A DNA stretch of 36,488 bases, taken from a virus (Duplodnaviria; Caudoviricetes). Below are positions 3,916-26,276 of the stretch, piece by piece (within the stretch, counting starts at the first letter, position 1; every line of letters begins with the position of its first letter). Location: the IMG/VR virus record IMGVR_UViG_3300044825_001479, positions 1 through 36,488 of that record; one strand, 5' to 3'. The notes under the pieces were generated by a model. The model was given only the letters and a program-made list of their open reading frames with translations. It was not told the DNA's origin and did no database searches. Both the position numbers and the translations under genes were made by a program.

Positions 3916-5499
3916 CTAGGACAGCTCGGGAAGAACCCGCACATGAACAATCGTTCTGGACGTCAGTTCCTTGACGGCCGTCACTTCCATACGAGTCCCC
4001 CGAGCCAACAGGACTTCAGCTTCTTTGCCTGGGATCGACAGTCCTCGGACGCCGGGACCGGTATCGATCTGAAGAGTGACCAGGTTACTGAACTGGTTAG
4101 CTGCAGCCTTCGAGGTAGAAGTTGAGACAAACGCATCGTCTGTCAGCACTTGACCCACGGCGTCCTTGCCGAGGTCGAACAAGCGCTCACCTTCCGTCCC
4201 GCCCAGACCTCGATATAGCGTATCCGTCACCAGGTCAGCGTCCGCAATGGCCTGGTCCACGCCTGCCACCAGCGAATCCAACCGGTCTGCATAGTAGTCC
4301 TTGACGTGAGGCACAAGCTTGGACTCCTGCCCACGAAGGAGAGTGTTGATCGCCTCATAACCACTTTCCGACGTGTACTGGGTAACGGCATCAGATGGCG
4401 AGATAGCCTGAGGTGGAATCGACAGGTCGCCCCGTTCTGCCCGCTTGCGGAGCTTCGCCAGTTCGTTGGCTGACGGGTTCTTGCCGTGCATGGTTCGGTA
4501 CCGGTCCACCATGGTCTGGACTGCGTCATCGTTTGCGGCTCGCACCTTGGCCTGGACATGCTGTCGGACGGGCGAGTCACCGAATGGCTCTGTCGCTACG
4601 TCCTGGCGCTTGGCCTCCTGGACCTTGCGCTGAGCCTTGGTCTCAGCAGCACGCTGCTGCTCGCCTTCCAGCCCAGACTCAGACTTGAACCGCTTGGACA
4701 GGCCAGGGATAAAAGGCCGCAGGTCGTGAGTGCAGTTCGGGTGAAACAGTCCCTCTCTGGTGGCTTCCTTCACCGATGCCTTGGCCAGCTTCCGCTCTTC
4801 GGGTGTGAGCTGCGCCCCGTCGATGAACAGGATCTCGCCTTCCCACGGTCGGCACTTCTTGCACTCGTCGGGCGAGTCCGACACGATGACCAAGTGCCGT
4901 CCGTCGTCCAGGTACTGGTTGAGGCGACCGCCGACCATCGCCTGAGCAGTGGCGGTCCGGACAGCCATTTGAGCGTACGTACTCGCCTTCCACACTCGGC
5001 CCTTACTATCGATGAAGGCGCCGAGTCCCTGCCGAGCGAGCTTGAAGACGGTACGCTGCGCCGCCACTCTCGTAGTAGTGCTGCCAGCGGCGACTTGCGA
5101 TACGGTCGAGGCGACGACACGTCGGTATTGATCGTCGGTCGCCCTCAGGAGCTGGAAGTGCGTAGACCGAAGCTTAGTGATCGTCTGCTCGACCAAGACC
5201 TCGACCGCTCGTTGGTTGGTCTTGGACCCGAGGGTACCGGTTACCGATGGCGCAACCGCCTGCAAACTGTCTTTGGTCACTTTGGCGGCGGTGGCGTCCA
5301 GGCGGCCGATTCGAGCCTGGGCTTGCCGCCGGACTTCGCCAATCTCGGCCAGCTTGCCCTCTGCCCAGCCTGGGGTATCTACGCCTCTGGCCAGCCGCTT
5401 GGCCACCTGAGACTGGAGGTCCAACTCTGCAGCTTCGTAGACCGAGGCGACCCTACGGGCGATCCGGTAGGCCACCTCCGGATCGGCAACCGCCATCAT
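3916..5499 (-). CDS. MuF-type minor capsid protein fused to a C-terminal ADP-ribosyltransferase (VIP2/C3-like R-S-E) domain
   Basis: N-part has FIDSKGRVW, CKKCRPWEG, GLFHPNCTH. C-part has YT..GYEAINTLLR, LYRG, FVSTS, KEAEVLL. Confidence 0.88.
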   Translation of the reverse strand: MMAVADPEVAYRIARRVASVYEAAELDLQSQVAKRLARGVDTPGWAEGKLAEIGEVRRQAQARIGRLDATAAKVTKDSLQAVAPSVTGTLGSKTNQRAVEVLVEQTITKLRSTHFQLLRATDDQYRRVVASTVSQVAAGSTTTRVAAQRTVFKLARQGLGAFIDSKGRVWKASTYAQMAVRTATAQAMVGGRLNQYLDDGRHLVIVSDSPDECKKCRPWEGEILFIDGAQLTPEERKLAKASVKEATREGLFHPNCTHDLRPFIPGLSKRFKSESGLEGEQQRAAETKAQRKVQEAKRQDVATEPFGDSPVRQHVQAKVRAANDDAVQTMVDRYRTMHGKNPSANELAKLRKRAERGDLSIPPQAISPSDAVTQYTSESGYEAINTLLRGQESKLVPHVKDYYADRLDSLVAGVDQAIADADLVTDTLYRGLGGTEGERLFDLGKDAVGQVLTDDAFVSTSTSKAAANQFSNLVTLQIDTGPGVRGLSIPGKEAEVLLARGTRMEVTAVKELTSRTIVHVRVLPELS

Positions 5500-9065: not shown

Positions 9066-9573
9066 TCGGTCGTTCCTTCCGTAGGGTACTAACCAGATCC
9101 TCCAATAGACCCCGGCCCTGACCGTCCTTCGGAGCGTCTACCTTCTCCAGGATAGCGGCCTTGTCCGAGGCGATAGCGGCACCGGTCAGCAGGTTCTTCA
9201 TGTCGTCCGCCGGAACGGCGTCCACCTTCTTATCGATCACTCGACCCGAGCCCGTGCCCTTGATCAAGTGGTATTGCTGCCCAGGTTCAGGCAACGCCCG
9301 GCTGAGCGTCTCCTCCTCAGCACGACGCCACATGATAGCCAACCTGGCCCGCCTGGCCTTGGCGTCTTCCGCAGTTGCCGCCGTGGCTTTTTGAGTCAAT
9401 GCACGTCCCGACGGTACCTCCCCTGCTGCTCGAACGACGGATGAGACGGCGCTCTTTGACCGGCCCGTCTGCCTGCTCGTCTCGCTCACGTTGTCGCATC
9501 GTCGGAACACGTCGAGGATGTGCGCCCTTTCCTCTTCACCGATCGGCCCGCTGCGCTTCTGGAGGTTCGCCAC
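9058..9573 (-). CDS. HTH protein, probable terminase small subunit
   Basis: N-terminal HTH (NVSETSRQTGRSKSAVSSVV) plus helical body, just upstream of terL. Confidence 0.65.
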   Translation of the reverse strand: MANLQKRSGPIGEEERAHILDVFRRCDNVSETSRQTGRSKSAVSSVVRAAGEVPSGRALTQKATAATAEDAKARRARLAIMWRRAEEETLSRALPEPGQQYHLIKGTGSGRVIDKKVDAVPADDMKNLLTGAAIASDKAAILEKVDAPKDGQGRGLLEDLVSTLRKERPNG

Positions 9574-9578
9574 GTTGG

Positions 9579-9902
9579 TTACTCTACCTCGACCCTAGGG
9601 CACACGGTGCATTGGGGGTCGCCGCACCGGTACCACCAGGGCCACACTGCATCGGGCATCTTGCCTATCATACAGGCGTATTTGTCGGCCGAGTCCTCGG
9701 GGATCCCATCCCTTTGGTACCGGCGCACTGTACGTACGTCGATGCCGAGTCGCTCTGCGATCGCACCGTGTCCGATCGGGTGCCCGTCTGCCGATTTGAC
9801 CGACGGAGGCCCGACCACGATCCCCATCGCGGCAGCTAGCCTGCTGAGCGGGAATCGCTTAGGTCGGTGGACCTCAAAGTCCGGTACTTCCGAATCCGGC
9901 AT
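9579..9902 (-). CDS. HTH DNA-binding protein (start uncertain)
   Basis: AIAERLGIDVRTVRRY HTH; C-terminal CxxxxCxxC. Confidence 0.65.
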   Translation of the reverse strand: MPDSEVPDFEVHRPKRFPLSRLAAAMGIVVGPPSVKSADGHPIGHGAIAERLGIDVRTVRRYQRDGIPEDSADKYACMIGKMPDAVWPWWYRCGDPQCTVCPRVEVE

Positions 9903-10701
9903 CGCCTCTCTCCGATGTCGACAGATCCCGGTGCTCGACTCGTTCGATACCCATTCCTGCAGCGTACGTCGGGAACGGCACGAGCTGAGCTAGACGCTCG
10001 CCTGGTTCGATGTGCTGCACCTTGCTGCCCACGTTGCGGACGATGACGAACATGTCGCCTCGGTACCCGGCGTCGATGACACTGGGGTTGACCAGGAGCC
10101 CTCGGTTTTTGAACGAGGACGACCTCCCGATCAGCAGCGCCCACATGCCGTATGGCCATTCCAATGCCACACCACACGGCACGTCCACGACTTCCCAGGG
10201 CCGCACCTGCAGCGTCTCGGCCCCGGCGTAGGCGAGATCGAACCCGGCGTCGTCCTGGTGTACGCGCAGGACCTCCCCATGCCCCGCCACCTTTGCCGAA
10301 TACCCCGACACCTCTGCCGCCGGTTCCTGTTCCAGCCAATGTACGGCTGAGGCCACGTCGGGAAACACCGGTACGTCCAGGCCCATGAGCGTGTAGCTCG
10401 TGTGGTCGTGCACCACGGCGACCGGGATCCCGCAGTCCAAGGCTCGCTTGATCTCGATCGGGACTCCGATGCTCGCCGTTCCCCGGGGCAGTAACGCCAA
10501 CACGGCATCGCTACTCTCAAGGGCCACGACGTTCACCAGCTCCGGCCAGTTCGTGTACTCGCCCTGCATATTGAACGCCTGGCTCGGATCGAACACCGAG
10601 AACCCAGCGCACTGGAGCCGCTCCTTGGCCTCGGCTCTCCAGGCGGTGACGTTCGTGTCCGTCCGCCCCTGATCGATCGGGCTTGCCAGGTAGATATTCA
10701 T
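9874..10701 (-). CDS. Fusion of a nucleoside-2-deoxyribosyltransferase/DNPH1-like N-glycosidase domain and a trimeric dUTPase-fold domain
   Basis: N-domain IYLASP, VFDP, SDAVLA, SIGVPIEI..A..CGIPV. C-domain has all five dUTPase motifs: AGFDL, GRSS, VIDAGYRG, GERLAQL, RGDAGFGSTG. Confidence 0.88.
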   Translation of the reverse strand: MNIYLASPIDQGRTDTNVTAWRAEAKERLQCAGFSVFDPSQAFNMQGEYTNWPELVNVVALESSDAVLALLPRGTASIGVPIEIKRALDCGIPVAVVHDHTSYTLMGLDVPVFPDVASAVHWLEQEPAAEVSGYSAKVAGHGEVLRVHQDDAGFDLAYAGAETLQVRPWEVVDVPCGVALEWPYGMWALLIGRSSSFKNRGLLVNPSVIDAGYRGDMFVIVRNVGSKVQHIEPGERLAQLVPFPTYAAGMGIERVEHRDLSTSERGDAGFGSTGL

Positions 10702-11048
10702 GGCCACCTTCCCTCCTGCTTGATGTACTGCGCCATGGTCGAGTACACGCCCAGGTCATGCCACGTGTCCTCGCTTGGCTGGTGTCCCTTGTACAGCGAG
10801 TCCATCACTCGCTGCATCTTACCGTACGCATATAGCGCACAGCCGATCTCCAGCGCCTCGGCATCGTTATACGGCCCGACATCGCCTCGGGCTCGCATAA
10901 ACACCCGGCCCATCGCTGCCAGCGAGTTCGATCCGTACTCCTCCGCCTTGGCTTGGATCGTTGGTGCGGTCGAGTCCACCAAGGCGTGCCACCAGGCGGT
11001 AAATCCCGAGAACGGATCTACGCACGCAGGTTCCAGGTGCTCGCTCAC
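10698..11048 (-). CDS. Small all-helical MazG-like (DUF1599-type) nucleotide-modification protein
   Basis: KAEEYG...GKMQRV...EDTWHDLGVYSTM pattern; translationally coupled to purZ. Confidence 0.6.
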   Translation of the reverse strand: MSEHLEPACVDPFSGFTAWWHALVDSTAPTIQAKAEEYGSNSLAAMGRVFMRARGDVGPYNDAEALEIGCALYAYGKMQRVMDSLYKGHQPSEDTWHDLGVYSTMAQYIKQEGRWP

Positions 11049-12115
11049 TTGAGCCTCCAGGCGATGGAGTTGGCGCCGGTCGTGTAGCCGTCGACCGTGA
11101 CCCCGCAGTCCGCCTCGACTGCCTGCAGGAACTTCGCCGCCCGCTCGGTCAGCTTACCCTCCCCGTCGGCCATCGTCGGGTCGATGTAATCGAGGAACGT
11201 GACCACCAGGTGGGTATGGGCCGACGGTGCCCCGTTGGCGATCATGGCCTTCTTGACGAGCACCGAGTCCCACTGTCCGATTCGCCTGGGTTTCTGCGTC
11301 ACGGTCGTGAGTTCCGGTCCCTGGATGTATCCGTCCGTGTACTCCTGCATGTGGTTCCAATCGACCTCGCCCCGCAGCGGGCCGGAGTTGCCCGCCACTC
11401 TGATCGGGAAAGTCCGGGCCACTACCCACACGTCCAGGCCCAGGTCACGCCGCCACGGCGAGATCCCGGCCATGGCCAGGAAGTCGATAGCTCTGCAGTC
11501 GCTGGAGGTGCAGTACGGATAGAACCCGGCGTGCAACCCGAGCCCGTATCCCTGGGTGCCTTCCACGATGACGCACTCGTTGAGCGCCAGCCGCTCGTTC
11601 AATAGCGTCGCTGTGTCGTTGCCGCCGTCGAAGTCCCAGATCGCTGCCGACCGATCCAGCCTCGCCATCCTGGCCTGGCCGATGCCCTTGGCGGTCGAGC
11701 CGAATCGGTGGTTGTAGTCGCTTCCGGCTTCGGCCTGCTTGTGGCTCTCCTCCAGGACGGTGGCCTGACCGTCGATCACCAGGCGCTCACTGACCTCGTA
11801 GCCCGCCTGGTCAAGCAGGTCGACCTCGTATTCAAGGACGGACTCGTCGATTTCGGACCCGGCGCCCAGCACGAGCTGAATCGAGTTGTCCACGACAGCG
11901 GCGACCGGGATTTGGCGAAGTGCGTACTTCACGCCGTCGATATGGCCGACCGCCGAGTGGCCTGCGTTAGGACCGGCCACTCGCACTGCGGTGACCGGGT
12001 ACCCGCTGTTGATCCGCCTGGCAGCGATCTGAGCGGTCACGTGACCCTTGGCTTCGCTCCCGAACTGACCACCGACCACGACGTCCAGCTGGCCGATCGT
12101 TGTATTCTCGCTCAT
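11045..12115 (-). CDS. purZ: PurZ (2-amino-deoxyadenylosuccinate synthase), PurZ0-like
   Basis: Short PurA homolog. GGQFGSEAKG has Ser in place of the catalytic Asp of GDEGKG. Also GPNAGH, GSTAKGIG, EGTQG, RTFPIRVAGNSGPL, TTVTQKPRRIG and C-terminal TFLD. Confidence 0.93.
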   Translation of the reverse strand: MSENTTIGQLDVVVGGQFGSEAKGHVTAQIAARRINSGYPVTAVRVAGPNAGHSAVGHIDGVKYALRQIPVAAVVDNSIQLVLGAGSEIDESVLEYEVDLLDQAGYEVSERLVIDGQATVLEESHKQAEAGSDYNHRFGSTAKGIGQARMARLDRSAAIWDFDGGNDTATLLNERLALNECVIVEGTQGYGLGLHAGFYPYCTSSDCRAIDFLAMAGISPWRRDLGLDVWVVARTFPIRVAGNSGPLRGEVDWNHMQEYTDGYIQGPELTTVTQKPRRIGQWDSVLVKKAMIANGAPSAHTHLVVTFLDYIDPTMADGEGKLTERAAKFLQAVEADCGVTVDGYTTGANSIAWRLK

Positions 12116-12151
12116 TATTGTGCCCTCCCGGGCTGTGTAGGGGCCTGCATC

Positions 12152-12610
12152 TTAGCGGCCCGCGTGATCTACTCGCAACTGATGGTAAGCCAAGTGGTAC
12201 TCGGCGTCGAGTGAGTGTTGGGTGCCTCCTTCCTTCCACGTCCAACCAAGCTGGGGCGCCACGGTCGCAATCGGCTTCTTGATCGGCGGGAGCTGTTCCT
12301 TGATCGGCGTATCGTTCGCCTTGCATAGCCACTTGATCGTGCCGATGACCTCGGCCGTCGGGACAGGCGACCATGCCTGCTGCTCCAGGAGCCACGGGTA
12401 GAGTCGGTATCCCTCGAAAATGACCAGCTCCACCGGATTGGCGCCCTTCTGCGCTTGGCGCAGGTTATCGACCAGGAAATCGAACAACTGGTCTGGCGTG
12501 TACGTGTCGACCCAGGACGCTGACTTGGGCTTCTTCACCTTCCCAGTGTCGTGCGATACCGCCACTCCACAGTGGACCTCGCCGGGGTCGATGGCGACGA
12601 TATAGCTCAC
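12152..12610 (-). CDS. RuvC-like Holliday junction resolvase
   Basis: GTG at 12610; IVAIDPG..HCGVA, VIFEGY, HSLDA acidic motifs. Confidence 0.75.
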   Translation of the reverse strand: MSYIVAIDPGEVHCGVAVSHDTGKVKKPKSASWVDTYTPDQLFDFLVDNLRQAQKGANPVELVIFEGYRLYPWLLEQQAWSPVPTAEVIGTIKWLCKANDTPIKEQLPPIKKPIATVAPQLGWTWKEGGTQHSLDAEYHLAYHQLRVDHAGR

Positions 12611-12792
12611 CGGAGATTCTTCCTGTGAACCTGTACGGCCTCGGGCCGGATACCCGTGTCCTTGATCCGGACCAGGACACCACAGTCGGCGCAGGTTCCC
12701 CGTCGCAGGCCCTGGGCGTAGTCCACGTCCTCTGGCGGGTCCAGGTCCAGGATCGGGTGGGAGCACATCAGGCGCCCTGACATCTCACTCAT
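12607..12792 (-). CDS. Small putative Zn-binding protein
   Basis: CSH...CADCG; overlaps both neighbours. Confidence 0.55.
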   Translation of the reverse strand: MSEMSGRLMCSHPILDLDPPEDVDYAQGLRRGTCADCGVLVRIKDTGIRPEAVQVHRKNLR

Positions 12793-12952
12793 GATCTAGC
12801 CTCTTCTTTCCGGTCGGGAAGGCAACCACGCCTCTATAGTAGTCCTCAAATGTCTGGCTCAGGATCGAGCCGATGCAGTCGGCCTGCGTCTCGTCGTCGT
12901 CGCTGACCGCCACTCCACAGTGGGCTGCTCCTGGGTCGACGGCGACGATCAC
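12785..12952 (-). pseudogene. Chimeric remnant ORF: resolvase N-terminus fused to duplicated polymerase C-terminus
   Basis: VIVAVDPGAAHCGVAVS resembles the resolvase start YIVAIDPGEVHCGVAVS. ETQADCIGSILSQTFEDYYRGVVAFPTGKKRLD is identical to the polymerase end. Confidence 0.8.
12798..12894. repeat. 97-bp perfect direct repeat, copy 1
   Basis: Identical to 13689-13785 (agcctcttctttccggtcggg...ggcctgcgtctcgt). Confidence 0.95.
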
Positions 12953-13677
12953 CCGTACCCACCTTCGTGCTCCGCTGGAACCCACAACGAATCGTGTTGC
13001 AGCCCTTGCTCTTCTCGTCGAGTCACCCCGCTGTTCGGTGAGAGCGTGAGACGCTGGACCGAAGTCGTGATCGGCACCCAGTGAGGCGGAGCCGAGAACT
13101 CCGACACAAAGACGTGAGCTCCCCGTCCGACCCACTCGTCCATTACCAACCAGAAGGCCGGGTGGTCAAAGCCTTTGGAGTCCCGGAACCCGACTCCAAC
13201 GTCGGCGTAAGGCGGGTCCGCGTAGACAACGGTACCGGCCTGCGGTTGCCACCACTCATACGACCGGTGTGAGAAACGGAGGTCCAGGCCGAGAAGACGA
13301 GCACGAGTCTTAGCTAGGCTGCGAGCAGATGTCGCCACCAGCCTCTCTGTGTAACCGCCGAACCACTTTCCTCCGAAGCTTGCTCCGAACCCGGCGAAAG
13401 CTCGCAGTGCGCTCGGCTCGGCGGTCTTCAGGTAAACGTACTCCTCCCGACTCAGCGACACGGGAGGCTCCCAGCCTCGCATAAGGGCCTGGTAGAGCAG
13501 GACTAGATCTTCGTTCACGTCGGAGGCCCGAGTCAACCCGAAGTGCGGAGCCATCACTTCCAGCATCGACCCGCCGCCGACAAAAGGTTCAAGATAACGC
13601 GCCCTCTCGGTTGTCGCCGCCAGGATGGCGGGCTTGAAGTGCTTCCGCTGTCGGAACTTTCCACCTACGTACTGCAT
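12949..13677 (-). CDS. DNA N6-adenine methyltransferase (D12/Dam-like class)
   Basis: MQYVGGK, YLEPFVGGGS (SAM binding), SDVNEDL, VVYADPPY (catalytic), FVSE. Confidence 0.9.
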   Translation of the reverse strand: MQYVGGKFRQRKHFKPAILAATTERARYLEPFVGGGSMLEVMAPHFGLTRASDVNEDLVLLYQALMRGWEPPVSLSREEYVYLKTAEPSALRAFAGFGASFGGKWFGGYTERLVATSARSLAKTRARLLGLDLRFSHRSYEWWQPQAGTVVYADPPYADVGVGFRDSKGFDHPAFWLVMDEWVGRGAHVFVSEFSAPPHWVPITTSVQRLTLSPNSGVTRREEQGLQHDSLWVPAEHEGGYG

Positions 13678-13678
13678 T

Positions 13679-15553
13679 TCACTTGTCCAGCCTCTTCTTT
13701 CCGGTCGGGAAGGCAACCACGCCTCTATAGTAGTCCTCAAATGTCTGGCTCAGGATCGAGCCGATGCAGTCGGCCTGCGTCTCGTTATCCACCTCGACCC
13801 ATACTGAGTCGTGGATCTGTAATACCATGACCCCGGGCCACCCAGCCTCGATCTTGATCATGGCGTCCTTCATCAGTTCAGCGACGCTGCCCTGTACTAC
13901 CTGATTCCACGCTTTGCGTGTCTCCTCCCCTGGTGCGAACCATCGCTGTCGATTGCCGGCAAGTCGAACCCAGCTGCGCCGCCGGGCCAGGTTCTCGGAT
14001 CGGTGGCCCATCGCCAACATCTTCGGCATCCGCTGCCCGTATAGCTTCAGCCAGCGATCCACCTGATCGACGGTGACCTGGAGCCCGGTCCACTTGGCGA
14101 TCTCGGCCTGGATGGTGCGGGCACCAGCCCCATACAGAATACCGAACCCGAGTCGCTTCGAGACGGCTCGGTACTTCTCCCATTCCGGGCTGTCCTGTTC
14201 GATTTCGAACACCAGGCGGCACGTGGCGTCGTGGGCGTCATAACCAGCGGCGAACTCGGCCAGCATGCGCTCCTCCTTGGCGATCGCTGCGGCCACTCGA
14301 AACTCGGCCTGGCTGAGGTCCAGCTCCCATAGCTGTTTGTCCTTGGGCGCTGTGAACAGATCCCGTACGGGGCGCACGCCGTCCACGAACTGGTAATCGT
14401 GCGGGATCGCCTGGAGCTGGATGCGCTCAACGCTGAGCCTCCCCGAGATCGTGCCTCGCCCGTCTTCGTTCTTGGTCTGGTGGAACACGCACCGGAGACG
14501 GCCGTCCTCCCCGGCCAACCTGGTCCATCCCTCGTACCACTTCGACAGGGCGGACCCCACCTTGACGTACTCGGCGTAATCGGCTGCTCCTGGTACGTTC
14601 TGCTCCACCAGGATGCGTACGCTTTCTTCGTCGATGCTGGGTTGACCGGTCTTGTCGCTGACCTTCGAGGGCGGGTAACCCAGCTCATCGAAGAAGTATC
14701 GTTTGGCACCCTGGGCGGTCGGTGGTCTGAACGGCAGGTCACGCCCGAGCTGGCCGTGCTTTACTTGGAGCTTGGCAGCCTCGACTCGAGCCTGTTGTAC
14801 GTCGAACCCGATACCCCGCATCTCCATTTTGGTCAAGGTCCGCATAAGCCCGATTTCCCGGTGTACGACCTCCCACGGGATCTGGCCCTCCTCGACCAGC
14901 TCGTACTGCTCCTGCCCTAGGCGCAGCGCCAGCTCAGCGTCCTTGGCTGCATACGGGCCGAGGATCTCCCACGGGGCCAGGTCGTATCGCTTCCGGTCCC
15001 GCTTGCCCGACACGCCGATGCTCTTGTGTGCAGGCTGGTCGACCCAGGCTCGGAGTTTCTGCTCAAGGTCCGCTTCTTCGTCGCCCCACAACCGACCGGC
15101 TGTGGCTTTGAGGGCCACGCTACTAAAGGGCCACAGTAGCGGCGAGATCACCGACGTATCCCAAACCACCTGGTTCGTCAAATCCCGGCCCGGAGCCGCC
15201 ACCTCTCTAGACAGGGACAGGCAAGGCCGGAGTCCTCGCTTCAGGAACATCAGGTCGAATTTGATATTGTGGCCGAGGAGACTGCACTCGCTCAGCCGGT
15301 CCAGTAGCTGGTTCCAGTCGGATGGCCCGAGGTTTATGTCGTCCAGACTGAACAGATCGGGCTGCACTCCCTTGGGAAGGTCCATCTTGTCCAGGCACCC
15401 GTGGTCGAACGGCAGTACCGAGGTCCGTAGCTCGCCGTCCTCGTGCCAGGCCAGCGAAACCACGCTGAGCCATTCTCGGTTGTCCGGGTGAAGGCCGCTC
15501 GTCTCGGTGTCGACGGCCACGATCGTGCCAGGCGCTGGTAGGTCAGCCAACAT
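13679..15553 (-). CDS. Family A DNA polymerase with 3'-5' exonuclease (candidate DpoZ)
   Basis: Exo motifs DTETSG, HNIKFD, YAAKD. Pol motifs A (DLSQAEFR), B (RAVSKRLGFGILYG), C (QIHDS). No 5'-3' exonuclease domain. Confidence 0.92.
   Translation of the reverse strand: MLADLPAPGTIVAVDTETSGLHPDNREWLSVVSLAWHEDGELRTSVLPFDHGCLDKMDLPKGVQPDLFSLDDINLGPSDWNQLLDRLSECSLLGHNIKFDLMFLKRGLRPCLSLSREVAAPGRDLTNQVVWDTSVISPLLWPFSSVALKATAGRLWGDEEADLEQKLRAWVDQPAHKSIGVSGKRDRKRYDLAPWEILGPYAAKDAELALRLGQEQYELVEEGQIPWEVVHREIGLMRTLTKMEMRGIGFDVQQARVEAAKLQVKHGQLGRDLPFRPPTAQGAKRYFFDELGYPPSKVSDKTGQPSIDEESVRILVEQNVPGAADYAEYVKVGSALSKWYEGWTRLAGEDGRLRCVFHQTKNEDGRGTISGRLSVERIQLQAIPHDYQFVDGVRPVRDLFTAPKDKQLWELDLSQAEFRVAAAIAKEERMLAEFAAGYDAHDATCRLVFEIEQDSPEWEKYRAVSKRLGFGILYGAGARTIQAEIAKWTGLQVTVDQVDRWLKLYGQRMPKMLAMGHRSENLARRRSWVRLAGNRQRWFAPGEETRKAWNQVVQGSVAELMKDAMIKIEAGWPGVMVLQIHDSVWVEVDNETQADCIGSILSQTFEDYYRGVVAFPTGKKRLDK
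13689..13785. repeat. 97-bp perfect direct repeat, copy 2 (3' end of polymerase gene)
   Basis: Identical to 12798-12894. Confidence 0.95.
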
Positions 15554-15626
15554 AGCTACTCCCCGGGGTACGGGCTCCGAAGAAAGATACCCACACAATG
15601 GACAACAACGACCCGAAAACTCGCCT

Positions 15627-15672
15627 CATAAGATACTTATATATACCGTACCCTACGTACCCTACGTACCCT
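15627..15672. repeat. AT-rich patch plus ~3 tandem 9-mers (CGTACCCTA); candidate replication origin
   Basis: cataagatacttatatata followed by cgtacccta-cgtacccta-cgtaccct in the gap between primase-helicase and polymerase. Confidence 0.55.
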
Positions 15673-15774
15673 GGAGGTTCTTCGCCCCGTCCTTCCGGGA
15701 TCTGGCAGGGTGCGTTCTCGGGTGCGCAGGGTATGATCTGCTCGGATATGTCCCTACTCGCCGTGGTCATGCGC

Positions 15775-18297
15775 TCATTCCTCGTGATTATGTTGCTCGA
15801 AGGGCAACATGCTGTCGGTTTCAGATGGCTCCGGGGTAAGGCCCATATGCACCCAGCCGGAGGCCTCCATGATGGCGTTCGTCAGGTCCTCGGGGATCTC
15901 CAGGCAGCGTAGCTGGTACCGGCCGTCCTTGTTGTCGGCGGTTCCGTACGCTGCTTTCCTGGTGACTAGTTCCAGACCCAGGCTCTGCGCCTGGAAGCGC
16001 ATCGCCTGCTCGGACCCGAGCTGCAGCTCCCGCTCGTCCCTGGCTTCCCTGCTCCACCACCGAGCGAGCTGCGGCAGGTTGACGTACAGGCGCCCGTCTT
16101 TCTGGAACCCGGCCAACGACGGACTGGGCTCGTTCGGCAGGAACGCACCATGTGCCATGTACCAGGCAGGCAAGACCCGAGTGATCATGTAGTGTTCGAC
16201 CTTGCGTTCCTTGGCTCGGTCCATGCACCAGGCATCGACACGCTCTGCGTGGATGCTGGTATCGAGCATCGAGTCCAGAACACGAGCGGCCATGCGTAGG
16301 ATCGCCCACTTGTCAGAGTTTCGACCGGAGCCCAGCCGGTAGGCTCGGAAGTCGTTCGCCATCTCGGCCCTGGCCAGGATAGCCTGGACCAGGTGGCCAG
16401 CAACGACGCCCAGGCCGTCGGGGTACCGGTCCTGGATGAGCACGATATCGTCCCACTGCGGGTAGTCGCCGTGGATCGAGCGCCGCTGCGTTGGCGAGCC
16501 GACCGTCATTGAGATCACTCGGTCGGCCATGGCCCGCTCGTTGTCGATGACCTGGAATCCCTCGCCTGTGATCAACACGGGCGACACCAGGCGCACGGTC
16601 ACCGAGTCGACGAAGCCCTCGCCGCCTTTCTTGGTCACCTCACCCTCGACGGTCGCCTGTCGCAGGAACTCCAGTCGCTGAGGCCCCAGGTCGGTGATGT
16701 CGTCCATCCACACGATGCCGGATCGATTGAGGCTCATCAGGTCCCTGAGGCTGGCCGCAGTGTAGGCACCGTGTCGCATCTTGGCACCCGACAGACCGAC
16801 CATCATCGGGAAGAACCCGGTACTCTTACCGGACTCGGACGGCGCCGAGATCACGACCATCGGGAACTGCGATGTCTGGCGCAGGATCTGGCCCTTGAGT
16901 ACGCACGCCACCCACCAGGCGCCAAACACCGAGCACACTGTCTCCTCGTGGAACGTGAGAACCTCCCGCAGCACGGCGAGTGCCTCCGCCTGGCTACCGT
17001 CGAATCCGTACTCGTAGGGCCGATCGGCGGTACGCATCGCTACGCCGACCGACTCCAGCGTGTCGTGGCCCTTGGGTCGGATCACGTGGGTCGGGGTCAC
17101 AAAGCCGTCGACCTCATCGTTCCAGCCGAGCTGGTCGGCGTATTTGAGGACCGGCGCATCTTGTGAGGTTAGGTACTTGAACATGCGGTCGACCTTGGAC
17201 AGGGATCCTCCAGCGCCGCTAGTGTTGTAGATCGTCGCCTGGTTGCGGATGCACCATAGGTTCATCTTAGGCGGGTGCGCCAGCGTCCTGGCCTCCAAGG
17301 TGCATTCCCGCTCGGTGCCGTCGCTGCGGTGGATCATCAGACGCCAGAAATCGAGCTCGCCTTCGTCGTTGAACACCACACCCAGGACGTGCGGATCGAA
17401 GTCCGACCAAGGAGCCTCGGTGTCCTCTTCGCCCGCCTTGCGTCCCTTCCTGGTGATAAGTAGCTGCTGGCCGTCTCCCCGGAGCCAACCGGTACTGGCG
17501 TCCGCTACTGGGTTCCCGCCGTTCTTGGCTCGCTCGTTGGACCAGATCGAGGTCGTGATCTTGGTGACCTCGGCCTCCTCCAGCGGATCGACCATGCTCC
17601 GGTTAGCCGACCATACCTGGGCGAGCCAGGTATCTTCGTACTTCTCCCGCTTGGCCAGGTGACCGGCCACCGAGGTCAACCATACATTCCGGCCTCCGGC
17701 CTCCGGCGGGTTCGCCAGGAGATCCGCCAGCTGGCTTCCTCCCGGTGCCCTCTCCGTTGCCGTCCCTTGCGTTCTCGGTTGGTCGCTGCTACCTACACCG
17801 CCGCCCTGTCTCAGATAACCGAGGAGAGCCTCCGACGGGGAGGACAGCGTATCGGCGCTAAGAGGGCAGTTCGGCACCCTGGGAACTCCGGTCGGGTGCA
17901 GGGAACCCGGACCCATGACTCCGCCGCCCTCGCCCCGTACGTCGAAGCTCAACTCGTCCTGGTGGACGGACCAGGACGGTAGCACTTCATCCGTTCTGAG
18001 ATAGAAATGGCGGCCTCGGGGAGTCTCGACCTGAAACGTCTCGTCCAGCTCGGGCCAGTTGTCCAGCCACCAATCGGACGTGTGCTGGTTATCCGCATCG
18101 ATGACCACCAGGCGAGACACGGAGCCGCAAAGCACCCATCCCTGGTCGGTCATCCTCGCCCATGCCTGCATCTTGGTGAGGCTGGGCGGTTCAGTCTGGT
18201 ACGGACGCCACTGGATGGAGGGAAGCGAGCTGAGGTCGGATTCTCCCGGCAGAACCACGATGCCGAGTTCGAGTAGCGTTTGCGTGTACGGGTTCAC
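15775..18297 (-). CDS. Bifunctional primase-polymerase (AEP) fused to PriCT-like and P-loop helicase domains
   Basis: LVVIDAD, TPRGRHFY, DVRGEGG..GPGSLHPTG; GGRNVWLTSVAG; Walker A APSESGKST and Walker B VWMDD. GTG at 18297 after AGGAG. Confidence 0.88.
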   Translation of the reverse strand: MNPYTQTLLELGIVVLPGESDLSSLPSIQWRPYQTEPPSLTKMQAWARMTDQGWVLCGSVSRLVVIDADNQHTSDWWLDNWPELDETFQVETPRGRHFYLRTDEVLPSWSVHQDELSFDVRGEGGGVMGPGSLHPTGVPRVPNCPLSADTLSSPSEALLGYLRQGGGVGSSDQPRTQGTATERAPGGSQLADLLANPPEAGGRNVWLTSVAGHLAKREKYEDTWLAQVWSANRSMVDPLEEAEVTKITTSIWSNERAKNGGNPVADASTGWLRGDGQQLLITRKGRKAGEEDTEAPWSDFDPHVLGVVFNDEGELDFWRLMIHRSDGTERECTLEARTLAHPPKMNLWCIRNQATIYNTSGAGGSLSKVDRMFKYLTSQDAPVLKYADQLGWNDEVDGFVTPTHVIRPKGHDTLESVGVAMRTADRPYEYGFDGSQAEALAVLREVLTFHEETVCSVFGAWWVACVLKGQILRQTSQFPMVVISAPSESGKSTGFFPMMVGLSGAKMRHGAYTAASLRDLMSLNRSGIVWMDDITDLGPQRLEFLRQATVEGEVTKKGGEGFVDSVTVRLVSPVLITGEGFQVIDNERAMADRVISMTVGSPTQRRSIHGDYPQWDDIVLIQDRYPDGLGVVAGHLVQAILARAEMANDFRAYRLGSGRNSDKWAILRMAARVLDSMLDTSIHAERVDAWCMDRAKERKVEHYMITRVLPAWYMAHGAFLPNEPSPSLAGFQKDGRLYVNLPQLARWWSREARDERELQLGSEQAMRFQAQSLGLELVTRKAAYGTADNKDGRYQLRCLEIPEDLTNAIMEASGWVHMGLTPEPSETDSMLPFEQHNHEE

Positions 18298-22749: not shown

Positions 22750-22791
22750 TTTCGACCTCCCAGGTCAGTAATGGTGAGTGGCGGTAGGGCC

Positions 22792-22821
22792 ATAGTACCA
22801 GGCCGTTGCGCCGGGCGCAAA
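22792..22821 (-). promoter_or_regulatory. SigA-like promoter TTGCGC-17-TACTAT overlapped by a palindromic operator
   Basis: Shares the 15-mer CGCAACGGCCTGGTA with the promoter at 26247-26276. Confidence 0.7.
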
Positions 22822-23967: not shown

Positions 23968-24015
23968 TTCGTGACCTCCCAGGTCGCTTGTTTGTTCTTC
24001 CCAGTTAATCATGTC

Positions 24016-24032
24016 GTTGCGTCGGGCGCAAC
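24016..24032. promoter_or_regulatory. Perfect 17-bp palindromic operator GTTGCG-N5-CGCAAC
   Basis: gttgcgtcgggcgcaac; variants at 22805-22821 and 26260-26276. Confidence 0.65.
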
Positions 24033-26239: not shown

Positions 26240-26276
26240 GGACGGCAGAATACCAGGCCGTTGCGTCGCTAGCAAG
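26240..26276 (-). promoter_or_regulatory. SigA-like leaderless promoter TTGCTA-17-TATTCT
   Basis: -10 lies 7 nt before the ATG; a degenerate operator copy overlaps the -35. Confidence 0.72.

Follow-up and report, generated by a model that had tools for sequence, protein, structure and literature searches.

The window analysed here is the whole 36,488-nt virus record and belongs to a freshwater tailed phage whose genes lie on the minus strand. The gene order as read is polA, a DNA methyltransferase gene (MTase), a stub ORF, a 61-aa ORF, a RuvC-like gene, purZ, a 116-aa ORF and dmtZ-dutZ. polA (13679–15553, minus strand) encodes a DpoZ-like Family A DNA polymerase that scored 264 bits against NF038381 (cut-off 350) and whose best phage matches are PurZ0-lineage polymerases. 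purZ0 (11045–12115, minus strand), the gene for 2-aminoadenylosuccinate synthetase, scored 301.6 bits against NF038379 (cut-off 300); its product best matches PDB 7VF6 (E = 8e-76), which we take to be the PurZ0 of Archimedes, and a Ser replaces the catalytic Asp of PurA. The dmtZ-dutZ fusion (9874–10707, minus strand) combines NDT-like and dUTPase-like domains and corresponds to the dATP/dAMP-removing enzyme of PurZ0 phages. Neither purZ0 nor dmtZ-dutZ is disrupted, and both show catalytic-looking motifs that we matched by eye to PMC12884076. The MTase is separated from purZ by the stub ORF, the 61-aa ORF (12607–12792, minus strand), for which no family was found, and the intact resident copy of a RuvC-like resolvase gene (12152–12610, minus strand) that resembles the annotated resolvase of Microbacterium phage Sucha.

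Directly after purZ0 lies a gene for a 116-aa all-helical protein (10698–11048, minus strand) with no Pfam family. Its homologs stand beside purZ0 in 79 of 80 PurZ0 loci, with Y38-G39, K77, R80, D94, D98 and Y102 invariant, which makes it a candidate for an undescribed member of the PurZ0 cluster. There was a weak DUF1599 lead in Atlas; a MazG-like enzyme was considered and set aside, the Foldseek matches being weak (E = 2.5) and VIA giving no clear match. Elsewhere in the window, 3916–5499 (minus strand) encodes a minor head protein fused to an ADP-ribosyltransferase domain, a fusion that the available text of PMC7302621 describes for cluster EJ phages, and a motif of ~ 30 nt (family D6) occurs three times in or near intergenic stretches (22791–22820, 24002–24031 and 26246–26275), possibly as a regulatory site.

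The MTase gene (12949–13677, minus strand) is an uninterrupted frame of 242 codons. Judging from its ATG, 1 nt past the polA stop, it would be transcribed with the replication operon; we did not find a sigma-70-like promoter within 9500–16200. Two RNA-labelled runs contain 0.23–0.28 of the words, which is no evidence of expression. The product is an alpha-class DNA amino-methyltransferase of the Dam/D12 fold, with motif X at Y3-GGK7, motif I as EPFVGGG, motif II at D53, DPPY at 154–157 and motif VI as VSE193. The order of these elements, X, I and II followed by an inserted recognition domain and then motif IV, (D/N/S)PP(Y/F), is that of the alpha class. The protein matches Pfam PF02086 above its cut-off (E = 9.5e-10) and also PHROG 56, whereas the Dam model TIGR00571 gave 41.4 bits against a cut-off of 114.85 and so leaves it outside Dam. 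The initial annotation had read this gene as an intact DPPY N6-adenine methyltransferase between the polymerase and purZ. The ORF and its motifs bear out the intactness, the DPPY and the position; "N6-adenine" is the name of the family and not something observed. That annotation also lacked a direct repeat of 100 nt that surrounds the gene. The wider family comprises 2,462 clusters at E < 1e-30 and is frequent in ordinary phages (123 cultured records); the fusions found within it were two nuclease read-throughs and were uninformative.

The setting of the gene bears on what it could modify. Most D12-family enzymes make m6A, and the MTase could accordingly be an ordinary m6A methylase that modifies the adenine remaining in phage DNA after incomplete substitution, or host adenine at an early stage of infection; a polymerase below the DpoZ cut-off is in keeping with this. 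Against it, purZ0 and dmtZ-dutZ are intact, and DutZ and DmtZ remove dATP and dAMP, which would leave little adenine to protect. The available text of PMC12884076 reports that DmtZ-DutZ of phage Wayne destroys dATP and dAMP, that dutZ is present in 98 of 98 PurZ0 genomes and the dmtZ fusion in 77, and that substitution in Z-phages is complete; the word "methyl" is absent from its main text. From its genes, the Z set of our phage looks complete and the phage equipped for Z-DNA, and Z would replace all the A in its DNA, as it reportedly does in phages with this gene set. An m6A enzyme is thus the least probable of the readings considered here, and a quite doubtful one. The same apparent completeness leaves without support two earlier proposals, that Z substitution is partial and residual A is methylated, and that methylation is an alternative protection for when Z is not made. 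Fully substituted DNA would contain no adenine, which would leave cytosine or Z as the substrate.

We compared the AlphaFold model of the MTase (pLDDT 91) with solved enzymes. The top four VIA matches were alpha-class DNA amino-methyltransferases (Z 17.2–19.6; next match 11.8), namely M.CbeI (7M6B; Z 19.6, rmsd 2.4, 206 residues aligned), EcoDam (17.9, 2.9, 203), T4Dam (17.4) and DpnM (17.2); these four are the only alpha-class structures available as references, and three of them are m6A enzymes. Foldseek placed EcoDam first by E-value (1.9e-10, against 2.7e-9 for M.CbeI) and M.CbeI best by TM-score and rmsd. M.CbeI also came first with the A2 profile (58.8 vs 52.9 bits), with the A6 profile, which was built without the clade described below (69.6 vs 59.1 bits), with a clade-only profile (39.8 vs 38.6 bits for DpnM) and in phmmer, the profile margins being small overall (1–10 bits). 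The alignment with M.CbeI runs as one stretch across the recognition domain, whereas that with EcoDam falls into two pieces that skip it. The part of EcoDam left without alignment is presumably its GATC-reading hairpin, which appears to be absent from the MTase.

M.CbeI carries DPPY and is annotated as a D12 adenine methylase, yet its product is m4C in GGCC (PMC3425538), and the available parts of this source, of PMC8616854 and of bioRxiv 2023.12.13.571470 agree on an m4C enzyme. Because DPPY leaves the base open and the best solved match makes m4C, cytosine N4, which the initial annotation had named as an outcome that would refute its reading, leads, and our first choice, held tentatively and based on the protein's motifs and relatives, is that the MTase may be an anti-restriction cytosine-N4 methylase for Z-DNA. 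A short recognition domain of the M.CbeI type would favour cytosine as substrate, and "adenine" would be the weaker label for the target. The lead of M.CbeI is modest, given the first place of EcoDam in Foldseek, the small bit margins and an identity of 21%.

The best cultured match of the MTase is gp41 of phage Sucha (MK737942), annotated as a DNA methylase, for which we found no characterisation in the literature searched. In a quick tree of 107 rows, the window protein grouped with Sucha gp41 and the near relatives of both in a single branch of 19 rows (support 99) that contained zero loci of non-Z context. Built from 21 proteins of the clade and 34 of the outgroup, a bootstrap tree, taken as unrooted, gave the clade split an SH-aLRT of 98.7 and a UFBoot of 100; the values 88.9/86 on the re-rooted tree belong to the neighbouring branch. 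We then took an exactly equal length of the longest contig as a tie between a clade protein and any of 261 PurZ0 entries, counting contigs of at least 4 kb and leaving out the window and Sucha. Of the 30 proteins from the clade, 8 had such a tie, against none of the 48 from the outgroup (Fisher P = 2.5e-4, from an incomplete PurZ0 list and from related rows that are not independent); on contigs of at least 30 kb, 4 of the 5 other clade members were tied. The lengths 41628, 41951 and 37388 had been recorded ahead of the search that returned their PurZ0 partners. purZ and the MTase are seen on one piece of DNA only in the window, in Sucha and in contigs of two sequencing runs described below (X4 and X9), and most other ties are indirect, by equal lengths. 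In the tied pairs the methyltransferases are 98–100% identical and the four PurZ0 types 70–77%, and the exact window protein occurs on 38 contigs; near-identical copies with divergent PurZ0 types suggest recent spread.

Starting from the methyltransferase family as a whole, we found purZ in 0 of 49 IMG/VR contigs (49 of 81 loci). One of these (L005) is a Sucha-like 7-kb fragment with a clade member and neighbours that are 55–66% identical; its exonuclease matches 136 records, with a genus tally that agrees with the actinophage purZ tally. Clade members with any context are therefore, as far as sequence records go, tied to PurZ0 phages, and the puzzle of a methylase in a Z-phage, raised by the initial annotation for this DNA, holds up and extends beyond a single genome, because a whole clade is involved. 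PurZ0 phages are kin, and common descent and exchange by recombination, not function, may account for the confinement. The clade was undescribed in the listed literature on PurZ/PurZ0, 2-aminoadenine and cluster EJ, within the available text; a figure of 116 domains in bioRxiv 2025.10.22.683976 may include methylases.

Within the clade, S206, Q208, Q227 and D229 are invariant (18/18), and the Thr that follows DPPY in 85 of 101 outgroup rows is lost. These clade-specific residues would fit either a changed site or a changed base. If the base has changed, the clade may derive from an adenine methylase adapted to N6 of Z, making N6-methyl-2-aminoadenine at specific sites and so blocking enzymes that cut Z-containing sites. 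The Dam-family fold with DPPY is in keeping with this, and the regions with the clade's own residues and the lost Thr may face the flipped base. On the other side, M.CbeI, the best solved match, makes m4C, the same changes could alter the site read instead of the base, and we found no natural methyl-Z in the literature searched. We regard methylation of Z as possible though unlikely.

The MTase is not a core part of the Z cluster. Its family was absent within 10 kb at all 80 PurZ0 loci examined, and from the 42 whole contigs among them that are at least 15 kb, many of which are siblings or incomplete. For such enzymes in purZ phages, whose frequency the initial annotation had proposed to count, this gives 0 of 42 IMG/VR PurZ0 contigs; among Microbacterium purZ records the gene was present in 1 of 18. 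The gene is missing from Milani and Benry, close relatives of Sucha; Milani, with 86% identical DNA, has another small ORF there. The MTase is an accessory gene that phages acquire and lose.

Some clade members are probably damaged, P0256 in motif X and at D57, and also P0246 and P0247, and selection would be intermittent since some members are damaged or truncated. Seven proteins (P0022, P0407, P0410, P0412, P0415, P0418 and P0016) are called from just after motif I and lack the SAM-binding start; six of the N-terminally short proteins belong to one cluster, and short members could be due to frameshift, phase variation or gene-calling error. Among near-identical copies in the P0001 cluster, length changes (P0002, P0244, P0251 and P0252) gather in a short stretch after FGGY in the recognition domain (13340–13350 region, minus strand).

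The direct repeat around the MTase is the polA 3′ end, 100 nt long with 97 nt exact, and its copies lie 891 nt apart. One copy, at 13686–13785 (exact part 13689–13785), lies inside the working polA, at its 3′ end, and the other, at 12795–12894 (exact part 12798–12894), is a duplicated polA 3′ end. After the MTase stop, a second start of the RuvC-like gene, 86% like the resident copy, runs in frame with the duplicated polA tail. The two form a chimeric stub ORF of 55 aa (12785–12952, minus strand; family D11) whose start overlaps the MTase stop and whose end overlaps the start of the next gene. The likely imported segment is 12902–13711, in which the MTase stands between the final 33 nt of polA and the initial ~ 50 nt of a RuvC-like gene.

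We compared four sequencing runs (X1, X3, X4 and X9) against the region. The wastewater-type runs X4 and X9 each contain 12902–13711 with 14 differences in 810 nt (98%). Their MTase contigs also carry 80 nt of purZ, which match with 14 differences and 4 gaps and are separated from the MTase segment by 779 other letters, and the X9 contig has a polymerase piece that is ~ 80% identical to that of the window. From this placement the order in the X4/X9 phage is pol, MTase, about 780 nt and purZ, and we infer that the arrangement fits a donor with pol-MTase-RuvC-purZ. The GC3 of the MTase is 0.695 vs 0.78–0.85 for its neighbours, and the 810 nt contain 3 of the 24 avoided sites of the whole genome (P = 0.013, for sites picked after looking). 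The MTase is likely a recent insertion from another purZ phage; scans of IMG/VR, JGI and GTDB did not yield DNA of the donor phage. An assembly chimera is unlikely, as run X1 has 12865–13718 without differences at a depth of 11.5 (flanks 14.6 and 11.4); its contig holds both junctions by only 30 letters, one below our bridging rule, and X1 may be the source sample.

The 97-nt repeats would permit loss of the MTase through recombination, and one contig in run X3 omits the 891 nt. We did not accept it as a natural deletion form: the X3 join is ambiguous and possibly an artefact of the graph, given a 97-nt repeat that is longer than the 31-letter words and the incomplete coverage of the MTase in X3. 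This contig enters into the reading of the MTase as a near-neutral passenger that recombination carries between related PurZ0 phages, that finds hardly any substrate in Z-DNA, or none, and that is in the course of disappearing. The patchy distribution (Sucha with the gene, Milani without, none in the 42 IMG/VR contigs) and the damaged or N-terminally short proteins agree with such a passenger. Its catalytic motifs are invariant among members only 48–66% identical, however, and the 38 contigs with the exact protein, like the 98–100% copies beside four PurZ0 types, suggest recent spread. A passenger is, on balance, improbable.

The window itself is purged of several restriction sites. CGCG occurs 12 times vs 221 expected (about 20-fold depleted), GGGCCC 0 times vs 10.5 and GCCGGC twice vs 22, and GAGCTC, CTCGAG and AGGCCT are also low, which points to these being restriction sites of the host. 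Strong avoidance was seen in PurZ0 loci, many of them from sibling genomes, for CCGG (31/62), AGCT (16/62), GATC (15/62) and GGCC (8/62), and many such loci (L084–L162) are nearly without CCGG, AGCT, GATC, GGCC or CATG, A-containing sites included. Z cannot hide A-free sites from restriction, and these patterns suggest that some host enzymes cut Z-DNA. According to the available text of PMC8342488, in which the methylases treated are host ones only, Z-DNA withstands adenine-targeting enzymes, and in vitro the methylases of E. coli still work on sequences that contain Z, with an efficiency lower by 10-fold or more. Both this activity and the avoidance of A-containing sites, AGCT and GATC in PurZ0 phages and GAGCTC and CTCGAG in the window, add to the case for methylation of Z; a lineage re-tuned to Z-DNA that sweeps between Z-phages against enzymes cutting it is conceivable, although we would not expect it.

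The site of the MTase is probably not GGCC or another 4-base G/C palindrome, because non-Z loci that carry the family themselves avoid GGCC (20/71), CCGG (21/70) and CGCG (18/63). AGCT is avoided in 1 of 76 loci with the family vs 16 of 62 PurZ0 loci, which is only a hint of AGCT as the site and is confounded by host. We did not see a site in k-mer differences between Sucha and Milani. No restriction partner was found among 52 neighbours scanned in GTDB loci (a subset of 76 candidates), nor any methylome data on family members in the available text of PMC11322646, PMC10711547 and bioRxiv 2025.05.26.655371.

Other methylases accompany PurZ0. C5-cytosine methylases are present in 6 of 43 PurZ0 records and SPPY beta-class methylases in 3 of 43 contigs; an enrichment of SPPY in Z-phages was rejected, as a non-Z control gave the same picture (7/7 SPPY among the parsed matches). 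One PurZ0 phage (G019) has a different D12-type DPPY methylase right after dmtZ-dutZ (L167:1000–1713, minus strand) together with a C5 methylase. Four cultured PurZ0-lineage phages, Sucha (gp43; L294:27259–27870), Benry, IndiRoo and Milani, encode a small NPPY methyltransferase whose distant relatives are annotated as adenine methylases. The 228-codon "adenylosuccinate synthetase" of Ruegeria phage 45A6 (L308:4887–5573) matches a methyltransferase and is likely mislabelled.

Z substitution is commonly described as what shields the phage from restriction. Given the avoided sites and the other methylases in PurZ0 records, a further layer of protection is plausible, and a second modification layer on Z-DNA is likely because sites are still purged and a methylase clade travels among PurZ0 phages. 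The second mark would likely be on C rather than A, possibly on Z itself, as far as the protein's relatives indicate. In the preferred reading, the m4C enzyme would shield Z-containing phage DNA from host restriction enzymes that are unaffected by Z. If so, there are Z-plus-m4C genomes, and it becomes questionable whether the members of a large phage family should be called adenine methylases; if Z is methylated instead, the clade would supply a new natural, doubly modified base and an enzyme that marks Z-DNA. Sucha with gp41 and Milani and Benry without it provide a cultured test pair.

The locus resembles the PurZ0 cluster of Wayne (Arthrobacter), Ghobes and Archimedes (Gordonia) in its purZ0, fused dmtZ-dutZ and related polymerase (dpoZ), and differs from it in the inserted methylase and in that DUF5664 had no match among the ORFs scanned. 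Sucha gp41, encoded by a cultured PurZ0 phage, shares the clade of the MTase and is 48% identical to it, but sits after an exonuclease whereas the window MTase follows polA. With E. coli Dam, T4 Dam and M1.DpnII, alpha-class m6A enzymes for GATC, the MTase shares the fold, the motif order, GGK, EPFxGxG and DPPY; unlike EcoDam, it carries Glu and not Asn in motif VI, and the recognition domains do not align. M.CbeI of Caldicellulosiruptor bescii (7M6B) and its relative DmtB are alpha-class DPPY N4-cytosine methyltransferases for GGCC. The MTase is an orphan of a phage, only 21% identical to M.CbeI, with no restriction partner seen beside its relatives and GGCC unlikely as its site, and the Thr-Thr that follows DPPY in M.CbeI is common to the wider family and lost in the clade. 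It is like M.CbeI in its fold (Z 19.6), in DPPY, in the D12 annotation and in a short recognition domain, with which the SFGGKWFGGY segment of the family aligns.
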